Source of the DNA: Escherichia phage SD2
Strand: one strand, 5' to 3'
Sequence record: PQ821640
DNA length: 64,000 nucleotides
Each line of letters opens with the position of its first letter. Position 1 is the stretch's first letter. The position numbers and the translations under genes are program-made. Below, in pieces: positions 1 through 9,341 of this stretch. A model generated the notes under the pieces. The model had not been told where the DNA came from. It saw only the letters and a list, made by a program, of their open reading frames with translations, and made no database searches.

Positions 1-1116
1 TTACTCTGCTGGTTCCCAAGTACCTGGAATCATCTTACGTACACGTACACCTGTTGGTTTAGTAGGTATTCCACCATCGGAAAACTCTTCATACTCAATC
101 TCAACAAATTTACCAATTAACATTTCGGCATTTTCTGCTTTACGATAGTTAATGGTTTCATCTGAATCCTTACGCATCAGGAATTCGACTACTTTACCAT
201 TTTCCATCTCGCCTGTCAATACCCCGTCACCATTTTTATCACGTTTTGCACTTACCACTTTAACTTCAAGCGTCTGCCGTGGTTTACGTTTAATAACATC
301 ATAAGAACGTTTATCAAACTCGTAAACACCTTGTGCATTACGATACACAACACCTTCAGCTTTCTCACGCAGAGCTTTTGCATAGAACGCATCAAACTGC
401 TCTTGGTTTTCAATGTACTCTGTATGTACTACACAAATAAGTTCATCTAAACCTTTATCTTCAACAACTTCTTTTAGAGCAGCCAAAACTTCAACCCTCT
501 TCTCAAATGGTACAGATGGCACAGGAACATCATATACATAGTATTTAAGAAGCGGAGTGTTAGCATTATGCTTTTTCCACGCACTATTGATTTGTTGAAG
601 GCTAAGGACACCCAAACCAGCAAAAACTTCACCGTCAAGAGGATGACCAACTACTTCTTTAATGAAGGTTGGAATTTCTTTCCAGTGAGGTGGAAGTTTA
701 TATACTTCCCCAGCTTTAGATAAGCATTCACCTTGCATGTTAATCATTGAACGTAGACCATTCAATTTATACTGTGCATAACCTGGGAACAAAACACGAT
801 CAGCATAATCTTTATAATCCTGACATTTCATGGGTGTGGAAGGAACATGGTTTTCAGCTTCCTCTTTTGTTTTATAATACCCATTCTTAAGTTGCTTTGT
901 CCATTTGGCAAGAGCTTCTATTTCAGCTTGTTCTTCTGCTGTTGTTTCATTTGAGCGACCAATATTTTTAGGTTCTGCTGTATAAGATTTGCTAGTAATC
1001 TTTCCACCTAATTGACCATGAGCAACAGTTACAACACTACCTTCGGTATAGACTGACCACTGTTTAATTTTACCTGTAGAAGTTTTACCATACAATGTAG
1101 GATTAGTTTGTTTCAT
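1..1116 (-). CDS. ATP-dependent DNA ligase
   Basis: Motif I KxNGxR (YKLNGLR) and motif IV EGVVYR in the translation; start chosen at ATG 1116 behind a GGAGG site rather than the upstream ATG at 1164; stop at window position 1-3. Confidence 0.8.
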   Translation of the reverse strand: MKQTNPTLYGKTSTGKIKQWSVYTEGSVVTVAHGQLGGKITSKSYTAEPKNIGRSNETTAEEQAEIEALAKWTKQLKNGYYKTKEEAENHVPSTPMKCQDYKDYADRVLFPGYAQYKLNGLRSMINMQGECLSKAGEVYKLPPHWKEIPTFIKEVVGHPLDGEVFAGLGVLSLQQINSAWKKHNANTPLLKYYVYDVPVPSVPFEKRVEVLAALKEVVEDKGLDELICVVHTEYIENQEQFDAFYAKALREKAEGVVYRNAQGVYEFDKRSYDVIKRKPRQTLEVKVVSAKRDKNGDGVLTGEMENGKVVEFLMRKDSDETINYRKAENAEMLIGKFVEIEYEEFSDGGIPTKPTGVRVRKMIPGTWEPAE

Positions 1117-1306
1117 CTTTAACCTCCAGTTGCGAAAGAACCCATTTAGCCATTTCAATTTCACCGTGTAGTCTGCCTAGTTCATAGGCATCATCAATAT
1201 TACCACCAGTGTAATCATCCACCATAAAGTAAGGATCTTCGCTACTGTTAGGTGCGTTTGCAATTCTCGTTAGTTCTTCAATAAATGTCATAGTTACCCT
1301 TACCAA
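1103..1306 (-). CDS. hypothetical protein (67 aa)
   Basis: ORF in the co-directional early operon; overlaps ligase start by a few codons. Confidence 0.4.
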   Translation of the reverse strand: MVRVTMTFIEELTRIANAPNSSEDPYFMVDDYTGGNIDDAYELGRLHGEIEMAKWVLSQLEVKDETN

Positions 1307-1524
1307 TTATACACAAGAGTTTGAATCTCTTCCATCAAATCTTCAAGATCTGTATCAACGTATTCAGAAGATGTTGCCATAAAGTATGTAATCATTGTGA
1401 ACCCTTCCGAAGAAAGGGCATCAAGGATATCATTAAACATATCTTCCATTTCAGTATTCTCACCAAATGAGAATAACATTTGTTGATCTTCGCTTACACC
1501 TTTAACATAGATAGCTGTACTCAT
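1300..1524 (-). CDS. hypothetical acidic protein (74 aa)
   Basis: Tightly packed co-directional ORF. Confidence 0.4.
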   Translation of the reverse strand: MSTAIYVKGVSEDQQMLFSFGENTEMEDMFNDILDALSSEGFTMITYFMATSSEYVDTDLEDLMEEIQTLVYNW

Positions 1525-1527
1525 ATA

Positions 1528-1848
1528 TTAATCCTTAAGACGTTCATTTAAATCTGCAATAACATCACCTAAATCTTCACATTCCAGTGTTAACTCTGAA
1601 ACTTGTCCACTCAAATAACAAACTTCTTCATTTAGATCTGAAATAATGTTTTCTAATGAATCTACTTGGTCATCATACGAACGTTTTGTTTCTTCAAGTT
1701 CTTCCGTAAGATCATTAATCAAACGGAGCAAAGATAAGATATAACCGTCTCCTGTCTCGTTCCTCCACTCACTTCCGTAGCGATAAATAATAATTTCACC
1801 ATTATCGACTACTGTAAAATACTTACCTTCACCAGAATAAATTTCCAT
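1528..1848 (-). CDS. hypothetical protein (106 aa), acidic coiled-coil-like C-terminus
   Basis: ORF with overlapping stop/start packing in the operon. Confidence 0.45.
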   Translation of the reverse strand: MEIYSGEGKYFTVVDNGEIIIYRYGSEWRNETGDGYILSLLRLINDLTEELEETKRSYDDQVDSLENIISDLNEEVCYLSGQVSELTLECEDLGDVIADLNERLKD

Positions 1849-1857
1849 ACACTCTCC

Positions 1858-2262
1858 TTATTGTAGCTTAAGTGAACTGCGAAGACGTTTCTCTTGCTGA
1901 TCACGAATATGTTGTGGAACCTCATGAATTGAGTCGTTACCGTGCCTATTTTCAACAACTAAAGAGATAACTTGATAACCAAACTCTTCAGCAAGAGTTA
2001 AATAAGGTTTAAGTTCTTTCTCTGTGGTTGAAGTGTTAGAGACAATAATCTTTTTAATATTAGATGCCATAGCATCACGAACAATACTCTGACACCATGC
2101 GTGTGCTTTACCTACATTCTCTGGCTTCCAATCGTAAACACCACTTTCTGTGTAATGATATTGATCTGCCTCACAGATAGGCCAATAACCTTCAGAAATA
2201 ATTTCTGCTACTGTAGATTTACCTGCACCTGAAACACCACGTAAAATGATAAGTTGTTTCAT
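1858..2262 (-). CDS. P-loop kinase, polynucleotide 5-prime-kinase-like
   Basis: Walker A GVSGAGKST at the N-terminus; size and layout resemble the T4 Pnk kinase domain; sits directly downstream of a ligase-like and a phosphoesterase gene. Confidence 0.6.
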   Translation of the reverse strand: MKQLIILRGVSGAGKSTVAEIISEGYWPICEADQYHYTESGVYDWKPENVGKAHAWCQSIVRDAMASNIKKIIVSNTSTTEKELKPYLTLAEEFGYQVISLVVENRHGNDSIHEVPQHIRDQQEKRLRSSLKLQ

Positions 2263-3195
2263 TTAGCCTCCAAAGAAGTTTTCTATTTCTTTACGTCGCT
2301 CTTGTGGATCTAAAGCAGCCCATTGAGTCTTAGTAAAGTTGTTTCGAAGCCATTCTAGCAAAGTATAATATTCTTCGTCAACAATTTGTTTAGCATTTTT
2401 TGGGTTGTCCCAAATCATATCCCACTTCTTATTGCCACCACGCATAAGGAATTTCTTAGCAAGATAGTATGGTGACTTAATCTTTAACAGCAAGTTAAAC
2501 GGATAGTTTGTTTCACGAACAACAAACCCTTCGTGCTTACAATGTTTAGACATTTCAACAACATCTGAAAATTTAATCATCGGATAAACTTCAGGACGTT
2601 TAAATTTTGTAATAGATGCAATCCCATCGAGCACACCTTCAGGTAACATGAAACTTGTCCCATCAAGATTTTGAATCCTTGCTCCAATTAAGTATGCGCC
2701 TGGTTCTTCTTCGACAATATGTGGATCAGAAGCATCACAGATTTCAAAAAGGAAAGTTGCTTTTGCACTTTCTGTCCACTTAATGAAATATTCTATGTCA
2801 TCACACTCTGAAACAATATGGTTCTTGGCAAGAATTGCAAAATCTGACTCTAGGCTCCCTGTTGTTGATACAATAAGTTGCCCTTTGTACACACCTACAG
2901 ATGCCATAAAACCGTTTACTTTACGGACAGCATCTACAAGTTGGTCTGCTGGAAGATCTGTACCATTCTCAAAACGATTAAAGATTTTAGTAAAAGGCCA
3001 AATAACAACATTATCTTCTGAGTCAACAACCAACCCACGACAATCTAGAAGTCGTTTGTCAACGTTCCACAAGTTATCCCAGAATACATTGTTTTTGTAT
3101 TTAAGTACAGCAAGACCAGCATACTCTCCAGATTTAACTTCTTTTTTATGTACTAAACCTTTTGCAATCAGGTCATCACAATTGAACTTAGCCAC
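2263..3195 (-). CDS. ligase-family nucleotidyltransferase, probable RNA ligase
   Basis: Covalent nucleotidyltransferase motifs: motif I KVNG, motif IV EGFVVR, motif V LLKIK; distinct from the DNA ligase at 1-1116. Confidence 0.5.
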   Translation of the reverse strand: MAKFNCDDLIAKGLVHKKEVKSGEYAGLAVLKYKNNVFWDNLWNVDKRLLDCRGLVVDSEDNVVIWPFTKIFNRFENGTDLPADQLVDAVRKVNGFMASVGVYKGQLIVSTTGSLESDFAILAKNHIVSECDDIEYFIKWTESAKATFLFEICDASDPHIVEEEPGAYLIGARIQNLDGTSFMLPEGVLDGIASITKFKRPEVYPMIKFSDVVEMSKHCKHEGFVVRETNYPFNLLLKIKSPYYLAKKFLMRGGNKKWDMIWDNPKNAKQIVDEEYYTLLEWLRNNFTKTQWAALDPQERRKEIENFFGG

Positions 3196-3196
3196 C

Positions 3197-3748
3197 TTAA
3201 TCTCCTTTGATTATCTTATGATGGTCTACAACAACAATATCACGCTTATCCATAATAGAGATGATTTCGTCAAAATGCAAGATTTTTCCGTGTGCGTCCC
3301 AACCAACATCCAACATTTTCCCATACAAATGATCAGGGAATGATCCGTGAGAGTGCCCGTGTAGCATGATTGAACCATGCCCTTGTTTATTCCAGGCAGC
3401 CATAGGATAATGACTTAAGACGAAGAACAGTTTCTGATATTTCACTTCGTCATAATACACCACCTCACCATATTCTGCAAGCACTTCTCGGTGTTTGCTG
3501 TAGTCATGGTTCCCAACACAGTAAGTAATATCCCCTTGAAGACGTGAAGCAATCTTACGGGTATCTTCTTCAGTCCCGAAACAGAAGTCGCCCAAGTGCC
3601 ACATCTTGACACCAGGACTCGTAGCACATTTATTCCATGCTTCAATCAGGGCTTCTGTCATATGATCCATATCTTCCCACTGGCGATATTCAGGAGCAAA
3701 CTCTCGAATACGTTTGTGCATAAAATGCAAATCACTTGTAATAAACAT
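3197..3748 (-). CDS. calcineurin-like metallophosphoesterase
   Basis: Motifs DLHF, GDFCFG, GNHD, HGHSHG in canonical order. Confidence 0.75.
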   Translation of the reverse strand: MFITSDLHFMHKRIREFAPEYRQWEDMDHMTEALIEAWNKCATSPGVKMWHLGDFCFGTEEDTRKIASRLQGDITYCVGNHDYSKHREVLAEYGEVVYYDEVKYQKLFFVLSHYPMAAWNKQGHGSIMLHGHSHGSFPDHLYGKMLDVGWDAHGKILHFDEIISIMDKRDIVVVDHHKIIKGD

Positions 3749-4110
3749 TAGTATAATCCCTCGCTGAATAGTTCACTGTCGTGACCATTTCTTTCATAGT
3801 TAATTTGTTTGGCGTTATCTGCAATGATATAAGCATCTTTGCGACTCCACCAGTTATAATACTGATCAATAAACCATTGATTATCAGGTAAGCAAAACAG
3901 TTTATCAATCAACCCTGCATCTTTTAAAACATTAAGTTGTGCAGATAATACAGGATTTGCATGCCTAACACAAGGAATAATTAACTCTTCGCCATTGTTG
4001 AGGATATACTTATTCGCAGCGCATACTATAACACGTTGAGCATAGTGATCCTCACCAATCCAAGTAAGAGGTTGGTAACAAATATCATGTTGATTAGTAG
4101 CGCACATCAA
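3748..4110 (-). CDS. hypothetical protein (120 aa)
   Basis: ORF with start overlapping upstream stop. Confidence 0.45.
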   Translation of the reverse strand: MMCATNQHDICYQPLTWIGEDHYAQRVIVCAANKYILNNGEELIIPCVRHANPVLSAQLNVLKDAGLIDKLFCLPDNQWFIDQYYNWWSRKDAYIIADNAKQINYERNGHDSELFSEGLY

Positions 4111-4265
4111 TTTTCTCCGTACTCTTTTAATCTATCAGCGAAAAAACTGTAATCAGGAAGTAAAAGATCATTACTCGTATCGTTACAGTTTTCTTCATCT
4201 TTATAGATAAAACGCCCTTCATCCTCTTCTTGCTCTGACCAAACTGAGTAATGCATAATACCTAC

Positions 4266-4640
4266 TTAATAGTTAACACGTTTAATTTCAACACCATAGG
4301 ATGAAATAAAATTTTCCTTAGCTAACATATATTTAGCGGCAGCAGAAGGATTTGATGTATGAACATAGATAGTTTTAAGAGCATCCCATTCACCAGCGTA
4401 CAACATACATTCTACGTCTAAGAACGCATGATATCCTTCTTGATCTTCTCCAAGATCATTATCGAAGTGTATCTCTGAGATGTTATTGAAATTATCTTCA
4501 TCTGAAACAAAAGATAACCAATCCTCAAAAGATTTTAACCAAATGGCATCCTCATAACCATAATCTTTAGGATCTCTTAAATCGTCTAACCAAAGAATTT
4601 TAGCCACTATCAACCCCCTTCCTGTTTCTCTTCTTTCCAA
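4266..4640 (-). CDS. hypothetical acidic protein (124 aa)
   Basis: ORF in early block. Confidence 0.45.
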   Translation of the reverse strand: MERRETGRGLIVAKILWLDDLRDPKDYGYEDAIWLKSFEDWLSFVSDEDNFNNISEIHFDNDLGEDQEGYHAFLDVECMLYAGEWDALKTIYVHTSNPSAAAKYMLAKENFISSYGVEIKRVNY

Positions 4641-4801
4641 GTTTTACCATTATCTACCAACTTCTTAGAAACAGCAAATCTTTCTCCATTGATATAAAAC
4701 AAATAAAGAATAAAGGATTTTCCTATAGTTACAGTATCTACTACTTTTACACGCTTCACACCTTGCATGTATTTGGCTTTACCTGAATAAATAAGGAACA
4801 T
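4610..4801 (-). CDS. hypothetical protein (63 aa)
   Basis: Short ORF, packing consistent with operon. Confidence 0.3.
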   Translation of the reverse strand: MFLIYSGKAKYMQGVKRVKVVDTVTIGKSFILYLFYINGERFAVSKKLVDNGKTWKEEKQEGG

Positions 4802-5079
4802 TACTTATTCCTTTTGTTGTTGATCACATCTAAAGCTGTGTAAGGTTTGTTTGTACCGCTGTATTCAAGAATAATTGGTACATATTCATAGATCAACTCA
4901 AAAGTACCATACATAGAATCTGCAACTGAAATAAGCATTTCAGTGCCTTTGTCGTTCTTAATTAATGAAAATCTTGCCCCTGGTTTATTGAGCACTTCAT
5001 ATTTCTTACCTGCTGTCAGCAAACCTGAATACCATTCATTTTGCACAACAGACAAACACTTCAGATAAGTTTTTCTCAT
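4801..5079 (-). CDS. hypothetical protein (92 aa)
   Basis: ORF in early block. Confidence 0.4.
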   Translation of the reverse strand: MRKTYLKCLSVVQNEWYSGLLTAGKKYEVLNKPGARFSLIKNDKGTEMLISVADSMYGTFELIYEYVPIILEYSGTNKPYTALDVINNKRNK

Positions 5080-5417
5080 TTCTTTTTGCTCCTTCTTTTA
5101 GGTTTCTCGTATAAACCTAACACAGCCGATTCTTTTGCACAAATAGGAACTGACTTCATTCCTCGTTTTTTAGCTTCTGGTAGATTCAAAACCCACCAGC
5201 CAAACCAGTACAATTCATCTTCTGTGAAAGGATCTGCCATAGGATCTGCATCACGTGCTTCAAATTTAGCAAGAGCTTCTTCTATCTTTTCTATTGGAGT
5301 ATCAAAGACAAAAGCCTCTGTGTCAAATTTTTGTTTCTTAGGAGCGGCTTTTGCCGCCCCGTCTTTAGATGCGCGCTTTGTTACGGATCGCTTCTTCGGT
5401 GTTTTCGCCATCAACAA
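5076..5417 (-). CDS. hypothetical protein with lysine-rich basic termini (113 aa)
   Basis: KKRSVTKRASK N-terminus and RRSKKK C-terminus suggest nucleic-acid binding. Confidence 0.4.
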   Translation of the reverse strand: MLMAKTPKKRSVTKRASKDGAAKAAPKKQKFDTEAFVFDTPIEKIEEALAKFEARDADPMADPFTEDELYWFGWWVLNLPEAKKRGMKSVPICAKESAVLGLYEKPKRRSKKK

Positions 5418-5604
5418 CCTCCATGCGGTGTAAGAAATCTTGCTGGAATCGCCAATACTGTTGACCAGTCCTTACATCTTCGTAGATCACAACAGGATCA
5501 AATACTTTAGATACACCCGCTGGTTTAGGAAAGCCAACTACACGATATAAACCGCCTTTGCTAATACAAGAATATGTTACATCAGTTAAAATTTCTTTTT
5601 TCAT
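5365..5604 (-). CDS. hypothetical protein (79 aa)
   Basis: ORF; overlaps neighbour so true start uncertain. Confidence 0.3.
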   Translation of the reverse strand: MKKEILTDVTYSCISKGGLYRVVGFPKPAGVSKVFDPVVIYEDVRTGQQYWRFQQDFLHRMEVVDGENTEEAIRNKARI

Positions 5605-5798
5605 TTCTTAATAAACTCCAATACAGGTACGTGATCAGCAGTTAAAGTTACACAATTGTAACTTACCTTTTCAACTTCAGAGAATGCTTCAACCCATAGC
5701 AAGAAATTCTCTTTAGCTTCTTCATAATTCAATGTTGACTTAACAACATGGAACTCACCAAGGATTACTCTGTAGATTGTTTGCATAGTTTGATTCAT
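5601..5798 (-). CDS. hypothetical protein (65 aa)
   Basis: Short ORF in early block. Confidence 0.3.
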   Translation of the reverse strand: MNQTMQTIYRVILGEFHVVKSTLNYEEAKENFLLWVEAFSEVEKVSYNCVTLTADHVPVLEFIKK

Positions 5799-5864
5799 TT
5801 ATTTTTCCTTTGTTTAAAATGTGTTAAACAATCGCAAATGCTTGTGACGCACTTTGTGATCCCA

Positions 5865-6272
5865 CTAATTAATGTCAGCACTATGATTGTTGAGAGTATA
5901 GGATACTCCATCGCCCAAGTCAACATGAATCTCAACTCCTAACTGTCTTTCTAATGGTAAACGTTTTGAGAATTGATAATTACAAAGTTTACAGTCTAAG
6001 TCAAGCAACTCATGTTTGCTTAAACCTGCAACGATAACTTTGCTTCCCACTGTCCACTCAATACCTTCAAAGTTATCTTTTCTTTTCAAAATGTCAAGTA
6101 AGAAGATGATTTGTTGCCATTCCGTAGACAAGTCTTCTTCATAGAAGGCAGAACAAAAAGTTTTATCATCGTAGAAAGCATACATTATGCCTCCATCTAT
6201 TGTTTCACTTCTAACGTAACGTGTGACCCTCATTATTCCCTCCTGTATGGCTCTGTAACGAGCTAATAGCAC
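5865..6272 (-). CDS. hypothetical protein (135 aa), first gene of leftward block
   Basis: ORF adjacent to divergent AT-rich control region. Confidence 0.45.
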   Translation of the reverse strand: MLLARYRAIQEGIMRVTRYVRSETIDGGIMYAFYDDKTFCSAFYEEDLSTEWQQIIFLLDILKRKDNFEGIEWTVGSKVIVAGLSKHELLDLDCKLCNYQFSKRLPLERQLGVEIHVDLGDGVSYTLNNHSADIN

Positions 6273-6574
6273 CTAAGATATGCAATCACCTTACCTCACA
6301 GTAAAACTCGTTACAATCGTTTTTAGGAGGTTTAGGTTGTACTTAAAAATAATCTAAAAAGGTGTTGACAAACGCAAAAAAGTATGCTACCCTAACCCAC
6401 GAAAAACGCCGAGCGCAGCGAGGGGGTGTTATCTAATCTTGTGATACATGATCTAACAGACAACTGAGTAGTCTACATATAGCACTATGTTATGTCTATA
6501 ATACTAACATACATGCTCTATACTAACAATAGATTATTTATTAATTTTATTATTAATTAAATAATAAATATCTA

Positions 6575-6603
6575 TTGACTTTAGATCTATCTGTATGTAG
6601 AGT
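6575..6603 (+). promoter_or_regulatory. sigma70-like promoter (TTGACT-N17-TAGAGT)
   Basis: -35 and -10 hexamers with 17-nt spacer about 40 nt upstream of the 6643 start. Confidence 0.45.
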
Positions 6604-6642
6604 AGAGAACATAAAGTCCTAACTCAACTAAGGAGATAAAGA

Positions 6643-7536
6643 ATGAAAGTTAGTATTCTGCATGGTGTTGACTGTTATGTTACTGATGTAGACGTTAAAG
6701 TGTTTACATTCTCTGGTGGAGAACAACATGTTCAATTAGATACGAATCTATCAGGTTTCAATCATGCTACAGACAGAATCTTACTCACTTTAGAAGTAAG
6801 ATCTGCTAAAGACTTGATGACTTTGGTTATGACTAAGAATGCATTGGACAATATGCTATATCATAAACCGTATTGTGTTGATTTACTCATGTTGTATGTG
6901 CCGTATGCACGGCAAGACAGAGTGTGTGAGCCTGGGGAAGCATTCGGAGTTAAAGCATTTGCTTCTATAATTAATTCATTAAATTTCTCACGTGTTATCG
7001 TTGCTGATCCGCATAGTGATGTTACTCCAGCAGTGTTTGACAGACTCTGTGTAATACCTCAAGAAGAGATTGCTTACGAAACTTTAAAGTGGAAGTTACG
7101 TATGGAGAATTTTGCTCTTGTTAGCCCTGATGGTGGTGCTCTTAAGAAAATATTTAAATTATCTAAGAAAATGTCTTTAGATGTGTTCTGTGCAGAGAAG
7201 GTTAGAGATACCGCAACAGGTGCTATTGTTCGTACAGACATTTCTGTACAGGATTTCAATAAGCGTAACCTGATGATCGTAGATGATATCTGTGATGGTG
7301 GTAGAACTTTTATCGAATTGGCTAAAGTGCTACGTGCTCGTAACGCAGGTAAGATTGAGCTATATGTTACGCACGGTATCTTTTCTAAAGGTCTTAAAGA
7401 GTTAAGTGAGCACTTTGACTGCATTCATTCTCTTAATGTGTGGGAAGATAACATCCAAGAAGATTCTGGTGTTCTTGTTAAGAATCAGTCAGATTTGCAA
7501 CAACAAATTGTATCTCCATACGTGTGGAATTTTTAA
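6643..7536 (+). CDS. ribose-phosphate pyrophosphokinase-like protein (PRPP synthetase family; possibly ADP-ribose pyrophosphokinase)
   Basis: PRPP-binding loop MIVDDICDGGRT and DPHS motif; AGGAG site before ATG. Confidence 0.75.
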   Translation: MKVSILHGVDCYVTDVDVKVFTFSGGEQHVQLDTNLSGFNHATDRILLTLEVRSAKDLMTLVMTKNALDNMLYHKPYCVDLLMLYVPYARQDRVCEPGEAFGVKAFASIINSLNFSRVIVADPHSDVTPAVFDRLCVIPQEEIAYETLKWKLRMENFALVSPDGGALKKIFKLSKKMSLDVFCAEKVRDTATGAIVRTDISVQDFNKRNLMIVDDICDGGRTFIELAKVLRARNAGKIELYVTHGIFSKGLKELSEHFDCIHSLNVWEDNIQEDSGVLVKNQSDLQQQIVSPYVWNF

Positions 7537-7546
7537 ATAATAAGTG

Positions 7547-7575
7547 TTGACAATAGGGAGTATGCTTAGTAAGAT
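7547..7575 (+). promoter_or_regulatory. sigma70-like promoter (TTGACA-N17-TAAGAT)
   Basis: Consensus -35 with 17-nt spacer; same motif recurs upstream of many units in this window. Confidence 0.5.
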
Positions 7576-7607
7576 ACTCCCACATTAACAAACAAGGAGA
7601 CATAACT

Positions 7608-9341
7608 ATGAATATTTTTGCACCTTTTGCTACTGATTGGTACAAACCTGGTCACAAGCAGATGTACAACCAAAATACAAAACTTATTTTCTCTAATTTA
7701 ACTCCTCGTAATGATAAAAACTTTGCACACTATGCAGATCGTGAAGCACGTGGTGTGATTGTTTTAGGTATTCGTCGAGCAGTCACTGATGCTCTTGTAA
7801 CTATGTGGGATAGCTTCTTTAAAATGTCTCGTAGTGCAGCAGTAAATAAATTTTATCGTATGTCTAAAAATGCGTTAGGTGCTTCTGCTCCTTCTGCTGA
7901 ATGTTGGGGAGAATTGCACGACTTAGGTTATCTTCCGCTGGAAGTTCGATCTCTGCCAGAGGGTGTTTTGTGTCCTATTGGTGTTCCTGTATTTACTGTG
8001 CATAATACTTTAGAAAAATTCTTTTGGTTAACTAACTATGTGGAAACACTGTTGTCAGATGAAACTTGGAAGACAATGACTAATGCCACAGCAGCTTTTC
8101 AGTATAAGCGTATCGCTATGGCATATGCGATGGCAACGTGTGATAATATTGATCACGTTAACTTCCAGTGTCATGATTTTAGCCTACGTGGTTTAAGTAA
8201 TATCGAAGATGGTTATAAGAGTGGTATTGCTCATTTAGCATCTTTCACAGGGACAGATAATATTCTGGCTATTGAAACTGTGCATGATTATTATGGTATT
8301 GATTATGATCAGTTTGTTGCAGGTTCTATTCCGGCAACAGAACATTCAGTAGCAACTACTAACATTGGAGCTATTGTTGAAGACCTGAAGAAACATTTCC
8401 CACATCTTAAAGATGATGTAGATGGTCTTCGTTATGTAGCAGAGAAAGAGTTTCTTCGTCGTTATATTGAAGAAATTGTTCCAGAAGGTTTTTGTTCATA
8501 TGTAGCAGATTCCTATGATTACTGGGCTGTCTTGACTCGAATTCTGGTAGAATTGAAAGATTCCATTATGTCACGAAATGGTCGTCTTGTTATTCGTCCA
8601 GATTCAGGAGATCCGGTTAAAGTTGTTGCAGGATACAATGTTGAATCTTTTGATAACTATGAAGACCTCTTAAATAATGGTATTGCGACAGCCACTGAAG
8701 TAGTTCATTTGGCTGATGTTAATAAGTATTACAATGTTCTTCAGGATTGCAGTGTTGCTGACTGTATTGATGAAACTTATGAGATTCCTTATTGTGAAGC
8801 AGTAGGTTCTATTCAAATCCTTTGGGAAGTGTTTGGTGGTACTATCAACCGAAAAGGCTACAAGGTTCTTGATCAGCATATCGGTATGATTTATGGTGAT
8901 TCCATTACTGTTGAACGAGAACACGAGATCTTACGCCGACTGAAGAAGAAAGGTTTTGCAGCTTCCAATATTGTATTTGGTGTTGGTAGTTATACTTATC
9001 AGTTCAATACACGAGATACTTTCGGTTTTGCTGTTAAAGCAACAGGTAGTATCATCGGTGAACACGAAATTTTGGTAAGTAAGGAGCCTAAAACTGATCC
9101 TGGTAAACGCTCTGCAAAAGGTTTTATTAAGGTTGTTAAGGATACCAATGGTAATCTTTCTCTTGTAGATAATCTTTCTTTTAAAGATATCCAGGATGAA
9201 GACAATGAGTTACAAGTTATCTTCAAGGATGGTAAGGTTATTACACCACAAGTAGAAGGCCGTGATGAAACATTCACTGATATCCGCAACCGTGTTGATG
9301 TAGAGGTTCTTCGTACTATGGGAACCATCCAGGTTGACTAA
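7608..9341 (+). CDS. nicotinamide phosphoribosyltransferase-like protein (NadV/NAMPT family)
   Basis: N-terminal DWYKPGHKQMY resembles the NAMPT start; 577 aa; immediately follows the Prs-like gene. Confidence 0.7.
   Translation: MNIFAPFATDWYKPGHKQMYNQNTKLIFSNLTPRNDKNFAHYADREARGVIVLGIRRAVTDALVTMWDSFFKMSRSAAVNKFYRMSKNALGASAPSAECWGELHDLGYLPLEVRSLPEGVLCPIGVPVFTVHNTLEKFFWLTNYVETLLSDETWKTMTNATAAFQYKRIAMAYAMATCDNIDHVNFQCHDFSLRGLSNIEDGYKSGIAHLASFTGTDNILAIETVHDYYGIDYDQFVAGSIPATEHSVATTNIGAIVEDLKKHFPHLKDDVDGLRYVAEKEFLRRYIEEIVPEGFCSYVADSYDYWAVLTRILVELKDSIMSRNGRLVIRPDSGDPVKVVAGYNVESFDNYEDLLNNGIATATEVVHLADVNKYYNVLQDCSVADCIDETYEIPYCEAVGSIQILWEVFGGTINRKGYKVLDQHIGMIYGDSITVEREHEILRRLKKKGFAASNIVFGVGSYTYQFNTRDTFGFAVKATGSIIGEHEILVSKEPKTDPGKRSAKGFIKVVKDTNGNLSLVDNLSFKDIQDEDNELQVIFKDGKVITPQVEGRDETFTDIRNRVDVEVLRTMGTIQVD

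Follow-up and report, generated by a model that had tools for sequence, protein, structure and literature searches.

A block of small genes in Escherichia phage SD2 that continues into a predicted RNA-repair module

Gene content and layout of the locus

We analysed a stretch of 64,000 nucleotides from Escherichia phage SD2 (PQ821640; "the window" means this whole stretch), in which a block of small minus-strand genes lies between positions 3748 and 6233, directly upstream of genes for a phosphoesterase, an RNA ligase and a kinase. Positions 3000-7000 matched Enterobacteria phage ECGD1 from end to end at 99.0% identity, and phage phi92 at 97.7%. At least 80% of this stretch was covered in 55 phage records, and a further group of 66 records matched it at 80-90% identity. 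The window is evidently that of a phi92-like E. coli myovirus (Stephanstirmvirinae, genus Justusliebigvirus). GenBank records named "Campylobacter phage", with Campylobacter jejuni given as the host (MG065639, MG065645, MG065656, MG065689 and related entries), showed 97.7% identity to phi92 here, and other "Campylobacter phage" records match rV5-like phages; the host labels look doubtful.

An earlier sequence-only reading of the stretch had described nine tightly packed minus-strand open reading frames (ORFs) of 63-135 amino acids (aa). These ORFs were found where that reading had placed them and corresponded one-to-one to phi92 gp098-gp106, all deposited as hypothetical proteins, and the phi92 names are used below for the homologues in the window. 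However, the genes number ten, not nine, and their products are 43-122 aa long. Starts were chosen from homologue alignments, the phi92 annotation and ribosome-binding sites, and the corrected starts were an ATG at 6233 for gp106 (122 aa, not 135), an ATG at 5411 for gp103 (111 aa), 4607 for gp100 (113 aa) and an ATG at 4107 for gp098 (119 aa); the size of gp099 was set at 49 aa. For gp106, the ATG at 6233 is the most likely start because it has AGGAGG upstream and because the longer ORF is covered by its PHROG match only from residue 14 onwards. The tenth ORF (5795-5926), which has no annotation in phi92, fills an apparent 66-nt gap between gp106 and gp105. It shares 62 nt with the 3' end of gp106, and its stop codon is part of an ATGA overlap with the gp105 start. 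This 43-aa ORF is a probable gene and the least certain of the ten.

In Phapecoctavirus iGC_PHA_EC001 each ORF had a homologue in synteny, with 42-83% of the amino acids identical. Between Justusliebigvirus and Phapecoctavirus, the proportion of nonsynonymous differences (pN) was 0.11-0.39 across all ORFs versus 0.55-0.88 for the proportion of synonymous differences (pS), with synonymous sites at or near saturation. The ratio of nonsynonymous to synonymous substitution rates (dN/dS) was 0.07-0.22 across the nine annotated genes where it could be computed, and the block genes are evidently under purifying selection. A Shine-Dalgarno-like motif was seen upstream of most starts in the block, and the block proteins matched PHROG families at 1e-32 to 1e-73. 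Intact ORFs, a pN far below pS, and Shine-Dalgarno-like motifs with tight spacing mean that these are genes and not chance frames.

Leftward from gp106 (6233), 17 co-directional genes followed one another with intergenic gaps of at most 9 nt and several ATGA or one-base overlaps. Their order was ten small genes, a metallophosphoesterase, an RNA ligase, a P-loop kinase, three small ORFs and an ATP-dependent DNA ligase, whose gene runs past the window edge; in phi92 and related loci a MazG gene lies just beyond on the same strand. No minus-strand terminator-like site was found between 6233 and 1. Because the co-directional array is gap-free and has no such site, the block would not be a separate unit ahead of the repair genes but the promoter-proximal third of one long array, which is probably a leftward, translationally coupled operon. 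The small genes had been said to precede the repair genes. They do lie upstream of them, but they are also continuous with them, and a view of the block as uniform unknowns set apart from repair does not fit gp100, a predicted enzyme of the repair module.

The promoter or promoters of the array are presumed to lie at 6234-6642, a divergent intergenic region of 409 bp between gp106 and a plus-strand NARP1 operon. This region held only weak sigma-70-like sites and one terminator-like hairpin, and over positions 1-7000 there was no excess of sigma-70-like sites (29 versus 23.3 +/- 4.3 in shuffled sequence). When the window, phi92 and Phapecoctavirus were aligned, the blocks CTCGCTGCGCT, TAGGGTAGCATACTT and AGGTAAGGTGATT were conserved between Justusliebigvirus and Phapecoctavirus amid diverged sequence, and no second copy of these blocks was found when they were searched across the window. 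The hairpin, which is GC-paired and followed by a T run, lies at 6398-6420 on the minus strand, about 165 nt upstream of gp106. Its 3' arm was absent in Phapecoctavirus, so the sequence and not the structure is conserved. A search of the region with Rfam gave no family at threshold (GA-cis reached 24.2 bits versus 34.7).

The cREC protein and the RNA-repair genes

The gp100 homologue (4266..4607, minus strand) is a protein of 113 aa. The block had been thought to lack recognisable motifs, and this was not borne out: gp098 belongs to the T4 Arn.3 family, as set out below, and gp100 matched Pfam PF20274 (cREC_REC) with 54.8 bits, above the gathering score of 27 (E=1.6e-14). The family-invariant residues D8, D9, R11, P13, W23, D49, D51, G58 and N86 were all present in gp100, and the Receiver-type acidic residues, located in WLDDLRDP (D8 and D9) and DNDLG (D49 and D51), were invariant together with N86 in 16 diverse cREC sequences. 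Homologues of gp100 were found in 357 phage records. The cREC family was defined by Iyer, Aravind and colleagues, who noted that it keeps the Receiver-type aspartates but never occurs with histidine kinases, that it co-occurs with RNA ligases and with genes that process nicotinamide adenine dinucleotide (NAD) or ADP-ribose (ADPR), and who predicted that it opens cyclic phosphates, either at RNA 3' ends or in ADP-ribose 1'',2''-cyclic phosphate (PMC7824862, PMC9503650). There was no histidine kinase among the neighbours scanned at cREC loci, and the neighbours at other cREC loci included Sir2, MazG, a CCA-adding enzyme fusion, RlaP and Nudix. When PDB sequences were searched with a gp100 profile, no Receiver domain was matched. 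We regard gp100 as a cREC protein and as a predicted metal-independent cyclic phosphodiesterase. The label "Nudix hydrolase" given to gp100 was rejected, as the match is to cREC_REC and not to NUDIX. Iyer et al. (PMC9503650) describe frequent fusions of cREC with Nudix in other phages, from which the label probably arose.

Downstream of the small genes, the gene at 3197..3748 (minus strand, phi92 gp097) encodes a probable calcineurin-like metallophosphoesterase, as judged from its motifs and from the phosphoesterase annotation in relatives. The DxH, GD, GNHD and GHxH motifs were readable in the translation, and the match to Metallophos_2 (E=1.5e-4, 22.3 bits) fell below the gathering score of 27. 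The start of this gene overlaps the gp098 stop by 1 nt. It is followed by a T4 Rnl1-like RNA ligase (2263..3195, minus strand, phi92 gp096; Pfam RNA_lig_T4_1, E=2.6e-13) and, with no gap to the ligase stop, by a P-loop kinase of the AAA_33 type (1858..2262, minus strand, phi92 gp095; Pfam AAA_33, E=6.9e-10) that is a candidate polynucleotide 5'-kinase. On one phi92-like metagenome contig (L129:6395-7385, CYGL01000168.1) the RNA ligase was split into two overlapping ORFs, so that the gene either is a pseudogene with a frameshift or was wrongly assembled.

The RNA ligase, the kinase and cREC are linked within one co-directional array in the window, and cREC also adjoins RNA ligase and kinase in rV5-like, Mydo-like and PVP-SE1-like phages. 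The order in FV3 was RNA ligase-cREC-Sir2-MazG, and in KB57 a phosphoesterase and two small ORFs came before RNA ligase, cREC and kinase, which were followed by one small ORF, Sir2 and DNA ligase. These orders reproduce the type of neighbourhood published for rV5 and Mydo (PMC9503650, PMC7824862). The linkage was followed in 26 rV5-superfamily loci longer than 4 kb that were fetched from IMG/VR and metagenomes, the metagenome cREC search being run with a 5-sequence alignment. cREC and phosphoesterase were linked in all 26, within about 2.5 kb in 24 and at about 3.4 kb in the Phapecoctavirus-like L020 and L143, and Rnl and the kinase were also present in 20.

Further observations came from cREC loci of other phages. 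On a 518-kb IMG/VR contig of a jumbo phage, a 534-aa protein (L042:5920-7524) combined an N-terminal cREC domain with a PolyA_pol-head nucleotidyltransferase of the CCA-adding type, an enzyme that repairs tRNA 3' ends, and its RNA-binding domain; in L034 the RNA-repair nucleotidyltransferase RlaP neighboured cREC; and in T5-like phages cREC was embedded in arrays of 17-21 tRNA genes. The fusion, the RlaP neighbour and the tRNA arrays independently favour an RNA substrate. In the window, 15 tRNA genes lie at 10089-13525 on the plus strand, about 4 kb from the block, and these include tRNA-Lys(UUU), tRNA-Tyr, tRNA-Asn, two tRNA-Met, two tRNA-Leu and two tRNA-Ser. In the inspected part of the corresponding stretch of phi92, the annotated tRNA genes were fewer or odd.

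We lean towards the view that the block is not one machine but the promoter-proximal part of an operon with accessory and counter-defence functions, in which gp100 and the downstream genes would carry out heal-and-seal RNA repair. cREC would open a 2',3'-cyclic phosphate, the metallophosphoesterase would remove the phosphate left after this opening, the P-loop kinase would phosphorylate the 5'-OH, and the Rnl1-like ligase would seal the break. The broken RNAs, tRNAs or others, would be products of host metal-independent ribonucleases. The operon layout, the family membership of the proteins and the linkage of cREC to ligase, kinase and phosphoesterase are direct observations, as is the reality of the genes; from these we infer each enzymatic step and the RNA substrate.

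Several points weigh against this reading. According to PMC9503650 cREC is experimentally uncharacterised, and a sequence search of PDB yielded no solved cREC structure. The literature yielded no transcriptome or expression-timing data for the phi92-like phage group, and in the rV5 genome paper transcription units were inferred from gene layout only; the description of the small genes as early in the sequence-only reading found no support. There is positive functional evidence for none of seven of the ten genes. A tblastn search with the FV3 and KB57 Sir2 proteins (E<=0.01) found no sirtuin in the 64-kb window, and the phi92 annotation has no sirtuin between the kinase and the DNA ligase. Six of the loci (L014, L020, L131, L132, L133 and L142) had cREC and phosphoesterase but neither RNA ligase nor kinase, and thus cREC and phosphoesterase may function in part independently of phage-encoded sealing; where 5'-kinase and ligase are missing, there is no obvious gain in removing the cyclic phosphate from broken RNA. 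Finally, the cREC proteins of Justusliebigvirus and Phapecoctavirus were 52% identical versus 95% for the phosphoesterase and the kinase, which makes cREC a separate, exchangeable cassette. In the same comparison (with L009, over 1858-4607) the RNA ligase was 88% and gp098 82% identical, and gp106 had 42% identity to its Phapecoctavirus homologue. The block is mosaic, given these unequal identities. The pS of the kinase was only 0.15 versus 0.41-0.88 in the neighbouring genes, which suggests a recent exchange.

The other proteins of the block and alternative readings

The gp098 homologue (3748..4107, minus strand, 119 aa) was assigned to the T4 Arn.3 (asiA.4) family by tblastn and by its motifs. 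In tblastn it was 45.5% identical over 112 aa to the arn.3 locus of RB27 (E=4e-22), and members of the family were found in 1517 phage records. The match in T4-like phages is the ORF arn.3 (asiA.4), which lies between arn.2 and arn.4 in the asiA-motA region. All 36 database homologues of gp098 carried the precomputed Pfam assignment PF26092. The invariant residues of the family were R26, R49, H50, Q78, Q83, R90, Q102, R107, N108, E117 and Y120, and the RH, QGF.DQ and C-terminal SEGLY motifs were likewise invariant. A profile search of 1.8 billion representative proteins gave 1780 clusters at 50% identity, in which the domain nearly always formed the very C-terminal end. The ten longest members included one (P0308) with an N-terminal thymidylate kinase and one with a coiled coil, and in the remaining eight the extensions had no Pfam domain. 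A metagenomic protein of 211 aa (P0279) contained two tandem Arn.3-like domains.

The AlphaFold2 model of gp098 had a predicted local distance difference test score (pLDDT) of 91.7 and a predicted template modelling score (pTM) of 0.81. A comparison with PDB by Foldseek gave no fold match (best E=1.1), sequence and profile searches of PDB found nothing significant, and a comparison with BFVD returned only uncharacterised phage proteins and weak matches to "large polyvalent protein associated" domains. Among the neighbours of Arn.3 genes in 75 IMG/VR loci, no recurring family was seen outside T4-like phages and one jumbo-phage group. A position of the gene next to phosphoesterase and cREC was seen in Stephanstirmvirinae only. 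An Arn.3-like gene was also kept in L020, L131 and L132, and in L020 the position of the ligase was taken by a 112-aa ORF of unknown function. We found no paper mentioning arn.3 or PF26092. The conserved residues of gp098 would suit an enzyme or a protein that binds a phosphate-bearing ligand. It was also considered as the missing sirtuin and rejected, as it had no SIR2 match and its family is Arn.3.

The name "anti-restriction nuclease", which gp098 bears in some GenBank and UniRef entries, was rejected as well, because no nuclease match was found in Pfam, NCBIfam, PDB sequences or the Foldseek comparison with PDB. Moreover, arn, the inhibitor of McrBC, is a separate gene located two genes from arn.3 in the T4-type locus. 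The label appears to be a spill-over from the name arn of the neighbouring gene or locus.

The gp103 homologue (5076..5411, minus strand, 111 aa) consists of a variable N-terminal tail rich in lysine and arginine, a conserved core of about 65 aa and a lysine-rich C-terminal tail. The lysine-rich termini had been noticed in the sequence-only reading, in an ORF drawn as 5076-5417, and the alignment confirmed that they are present at both ends and conserved. In the AlphaFold2 model the core was folded as beta-alpha-alpha-beta-alpha with a pLDDT of about 88-91, and the tails were disordered. Homologues were found in 341 phage records, among Stephanstirmvirinae, Vequintavirinae, PVP-SE1-like and Mydo-like phages and some Aeromonas phages, and were usually encoded upstream of the phosphoesterase. 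Neither Pfam nor NCBIfam gave a match for gp103, and Foldseek found none in PDB (best E=2.7). A resemblance to ribosomal protein S6, the best PDB profile match at E=0.18, was judged to be noise. The label "transposase-like", which first appeared on PVP-SE1 gp102, was rejected, since gp103 has no transposase, DDE, integrase, helix-turn-helix or other Pfam domain and no fold match. Its charge distribution suggests that gp103 probably binds nucleic acid.

The other seven genes, all on the minus strand, were gp106, the 43-aa ORF, gp105, gp104, gp102, gp101 and gp099. The first gene of the array, gp106 (5865..6233; PHROG 14390), encodes an acidic protein of 122 aa that was found in 132 phage records, essentially in Stephanstirmvirinae only, with a dN/dS of 0.19. 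The 43-aa ORF (5795..5926), as read directly from its sequence, has one hydrophobic helix and a basic C-terminal tail and is probably a small membrane protein. It was 97.8% conserved in phi92-like genomes with a dN/dS of 0.36, and the Phapecoctavirus annotation has a hydrophobic ORF of 38 aa at this very position, although the pairwise match between the two was weak (E=0.002). The product of gp105 (5601..5798; PHROG 15683) has 65 aa and is 49% identical to its syntenic homologue. That of gp104 (5365..5604; PHROG 12584) has 79 aa and was found in 139 phage records, mainly of Stephanstirmvirinae, with a dN/dS of 0.14; an assignment to DUF1653, noted for phi92, was rejected because the match reached 13.8 bits versus 23.5 and because two homologues of about 73% identity had no match at E<=0.1. 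Both gp102 (4801..5079; 92 aa; PHROG 10169) and gp101 (4610..4801; 63 aa; PHROG 15376) are basic, with syntenic homologues of 63% and 69% identity, respectively, and a dN/dS of 0.07 for gp101. Lastly, gp099 (4107..4256; 49 aa; PHROG 18323) has an isoelectric point (pI) of 4.05 and a syntenic homologue of 74% identity with a dN/dS of 0.09. Two further lineages also have a small acidic ORF after cREC, but BLASTP found no homology between gp099 and these ORFs, and the relation is positional only. Among these seven, gp104 and gp106 were searched widely in phage records, and the others were compared in Justusliebigvirus and Phapecoctavirus.

When the ten proteins were searched against Pfam, PHROGs, NCBIfam and PADLOC, only cREC_REC scored above threshold, and all PHROG matches were to families of "unknown function". 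Since PADLOC contains models of defence and not of anti-defence, its negative result is weak in both directions. Pfam searches with divergent homologues of gp101, gp102, gp104, gp105 and gp106 and with two extra Phapecoctavirus genes found nothing, and sequence and profile searches of PDB with gp102, gp104 and gp106 gave no significant match. The gene content of the block also varied, with the two extra genes of Phapecoctavirus lying between the gp101 and cREC homologues, and with other lineages lacking gp098 or exchanging the acidic ORF. If a role is to be named from size and position, the seven unassigned small proteins would most likely be binders or inhibitors of host factors.

One alternative is that gp099, gp101, gp102, gp104, gp105, gp106 and the 43-aa ORF are stand-alone early binders for host takeover or anti-defence, which share a transcript with the repair genes by chance. 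With 43-122 aa the proteins are small, several of them carry a strong charge (pI 4.05 to 9.7), and none matches an enzyme family. The two that were searched widely are lineage-restricted, and a block content that varies between genera is typical of accessory, arms-race loci. The plasticity of the block, the small sizes and the extreme charges are as expected of conflict-related genes and make the idea plausible. However, no homology to known anti-defence or takeover proteins was found in PHROGs, NCBIfam or PADLOC, and because neither PADLOC nor NCBIfam nor a functional PHROG gave a match, a role as inhibitors or in takeover is read from position alone. We regard this alternative as possible but on the unlikely side. 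The sequence-only reading had called such blocks the usual location of takeover and anti-defence genes. The surroundings fit this, with RNA repair, NARP1 and 15 tRNA genes nearby, but not one match to a known protein of either kind was obtained.

A second alternative concerns the substrate of cREC and starts from the genes on the other side of the intergenic region. The gene at 6643-7536 (plus strand) encodes Adps, which resembles phosphoribosyl pyrophosphate (PRPP) synthetase (PRPS matches at about 6e-15), and the gene at 7608-9341 (plus strand) encodes Namat, which resembles NAMPT. The latter protein matched the solved structures 9W5X and 9W5W, identified as Namat in PMC12774641, at E=4.5e-118 to about 5e-118 and canonical NAMPT at about 1e-50 to about 5e-50. 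As the second protein is far closer to solved Namat than to NAMPT, the pair at 6643-9341 is evidently NARP1 (Adps and Namat) and not an ordinary PRPP synthetase and NAMPT. NARP1 is a validated anti-defence pathway in which NAD+ is rebuilt from ADP-ribose and nicotinamide. Just after Namat, a 73-aa ORF (9413-9634, plus strand) has two CxxC pairs (CRACN...CSIC), which suggest a zinc ribbon.

With NARP1 so close, cREC and the metallophosphoesterase, possibly together with the Arn.3-like protein, could serve this pathway instead of or besides RNA repair. ADP-ribose derivatives of no use to NARP1 would be turned back into ADP-ribose, from which Adps and Namat would then rebuild NAD+; the substrates could be ADPR-1'',2''-cyclic phosphate, which arises by spontaneous breakdown of ADPR-PP, and ADPR-1''-phosphate from RES-type NADases. 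The cyclic phosphate has been seen as a by-product in infections with NARP1 expressed, arising spontaneously from ADPR-PP (10.1101/2024.02.11.579819), and Iyer et al. predicted that cREC is able to act on 1''-2'' cyclic ADPR phosphate (PMC9503650). There is also a precedent for accessory enzymes in NARP1 operons, namely the Macro phosphatase Adpp (10.64898/2026.01.28.702374) and the glycosidase RyDEP (10.64898/2026.05.28.727677), which were shown in these two preprints to turn ADPR derivatives into the substrate of NARP1.

The genomic evidence for this alternative was divided. The operon has NARP1 as its divergent neighbour in phi92-like, PVP-SE1-like and Mydo-like phages, and likewise in L014, L132 and L133, three of the six loci with cREC and phosphoesterase but without ligase or kinase. 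In Vequintavirus (rV5, FV3) and Phapecoctavirus, by contrast, cREC, ligase, kinase and phosphoesterase were present but NARP1 was not adjacent. On a distant contig (L053), genes resembling Adps and Namat came 28 nt after cREC (PF20274, E=2.4e-23), in the same orientation. Yet L039, L043 and L046 had a cREC nearly identical to that of L053 and no NARP1 genes in the fetched flanks, so the adjacency in L053 may be an incidental cassette insertion, and apart from L053 neither Adps nor Namat was found at any of about 45 distant cREC loci. In L053 (1191-5221) the Namat-like gene was apparently interrupted by a LAGLIDADG homing-endonuclease ORF (4170-4934), with the C-terminal piece at 4949-5221. An RNA substrate is favoured by the CCA-adding enzyme fused to cREC in L042 and by the tRNA arrays around cREC in T5-like phages. 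We consider a service of these proteins to NARP1 unlikely.

In a more specific form of the idea, cREC and the phosphoesterase would make up an unrecognised salvage branch of NARP1, in which cREC would re-open ADPR-1'',2''-cyclic phosphate, a dead end of the pathway, or would process related ADPR phosphates from host NADases, after which the phosphoesterase would take off the phosphate and ADP-ribose would go back to Adps and Namat. Such a branch would explain why cREC and the phosphoesterase stand next to NARP1 in relatives that lack ligase and kinase, and it would explain the cREC-Adps-Namat operon of one distant phage and the cyclic-ADPR-phosphate prediction for the family. The Arn.3-family protein, whose gene in this lineage sits between those for cREC and the phosphoesterase, has a conserved surface rich in arginine and histidine and might be a third component. 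In this narrower form we hold the proposal to be distinctly unlikely. RNA end-healing is the best-supported role of cREC, ahead of the NAD-centred alternative.

It is very improbable that the GenBank names are right and that gp098 is an anti-restriction nuclease, gp103 transposase-like and gp100 a Nudix hydrolase: the names stand in several deposited records and in UniRef cluster names, but gp098 is a homologue of arn.3, gp103 is without a domain or fold match and gp100 is a cREC_REC protein. That the ORFs are chance open frames in AT-rich DNA can be set aside as practically negligible, for although short ORFs are common in DNA of 35-40% GC and the 43-aa ORF is backed by position, composition and a weak match, the frames stayed intact despite saturated synonymous divergence, with the PHROG matches, Shine-Dalgarno-like motifs and coupled start/stop overlaps described above.

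Comparison with known systems

The block is mostly ordinary and largely already described. Its genes occur, annotated as hypothetical, in over 100 sequenced phages of the phi92-like and phAPEC8-like groups, and the sole assignable gene belongs to a neighbourhood that has been described computationally. The phi92-type module is a version of the rV5-type RNA-repair set that is rearranged and lacks the sirtuin. Phi92-like phages in the BASEL collection (Bas60 and Bas62 in database records) are tractable and would be convenient for a first test of cREC function. The relatives without ligase and kinase, together with the cREC-NARP1 operon, raise ADPR cyclic phosphate as an alternative substrate that can be tested. 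Through gp098 the block is linked to T4 arn.3, a family with about 1500 phage genome records, a confident model and a fold without a match in PDB, which makes it a good target for structural and biochemical work. In addition, three misleading product names that are spreading in GenBank and UniRef ("anti-restriction nuclease", "transposase-like" and "Nudix") are corrected here.

The closest known arrangement is the neighbourhood "prototyped by Escherichia phage V5 and Proteus phage Mydo", which comprises a sirtuin, a T4-like tRNA ligase, cREC, a nucleotide kinase, MazG and sometimes a calcineurin-like phosphoesterase (Iyer, Burroughs, Anantharaman and Aravind 2022; PMC9503650, section 3.7.3). 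The window comes from the same phage superfamily and shares with it the T4-like RNA ligase, cREC, the nucleotide kinase and the calcineurin-like phosphoesterase, and in phi92 the MazG pyrophosphatase follows further along the same strand. In contrast to the rV5/Mydo type, the window has no central sirtuin, cREC lies upstream of the phosphoesterase and not between ligase and kinase, and gp099 (the acidic 49-aa ORF) and gp098 (the Arn.3 family) are inserted between cREC and the phosphoesterase. Some relatives have also lost ligase and kinase but kept cREC and phosphoesterase.

In phage T4, Pnkp and Rnl1 form a heal-and-seal pathway for tRNA that counters the anticodon nuclease PrrC. The mechanism of T4 Pnkp has been described (PMC3592404). 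The proposed steps in the window resemble this pathway, with removal of a cyclic phosphate, phosphorylation of the 5'-OH and sealing by a ligase of the Rnl1 family, and tRNAs are supplied by the phage. In the window, however, the predicted healing would be spread over three small proteins (cREC, the metallophosphoesterase and the kinase), whereas T4 has one bifunctional Pnkp with a DxDxT acylphosphatase domain. T4 also provides the comparison for gp098, which has 45% identity to Arn.3 and shares its conserved motifs and the C-terminal SEGLY. The T4-type protein has an N-terminal extension of about 35 aa (153 versus 119 aa), and the gene context differs.

The accessory enzymes of NARP1 operons offer a third comparison. 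As with these, a gene for a small hydrolase lies beside Adps and Namat and could make a substrate for NARP1 from an ADPR derivative. Unlike Adpp and RyDEP, cREC has a predicted Receiver-like fold and neither a Macro nor a RyR fold, it lies on the opposite strand about 2 kb from NARP1, and its association with NARP1 is not general.

A fourth comparison is with the CCA-adding enzymes of bacteria, whose HD domain, as Yakunin et al. reportedly found in 2004, has 2',3'-cyclic phosphodiesterase and phosphatase activity. The domains differ, being Receiver-like in cREC versus HD in these enzymes, and the cREC protein of the window stands alone. The likeness is to the jumbo-phage protein L042, in which a predicted cyclic-phosphate-processing module is joined to a CCA-adding nucleotidyltransferase.

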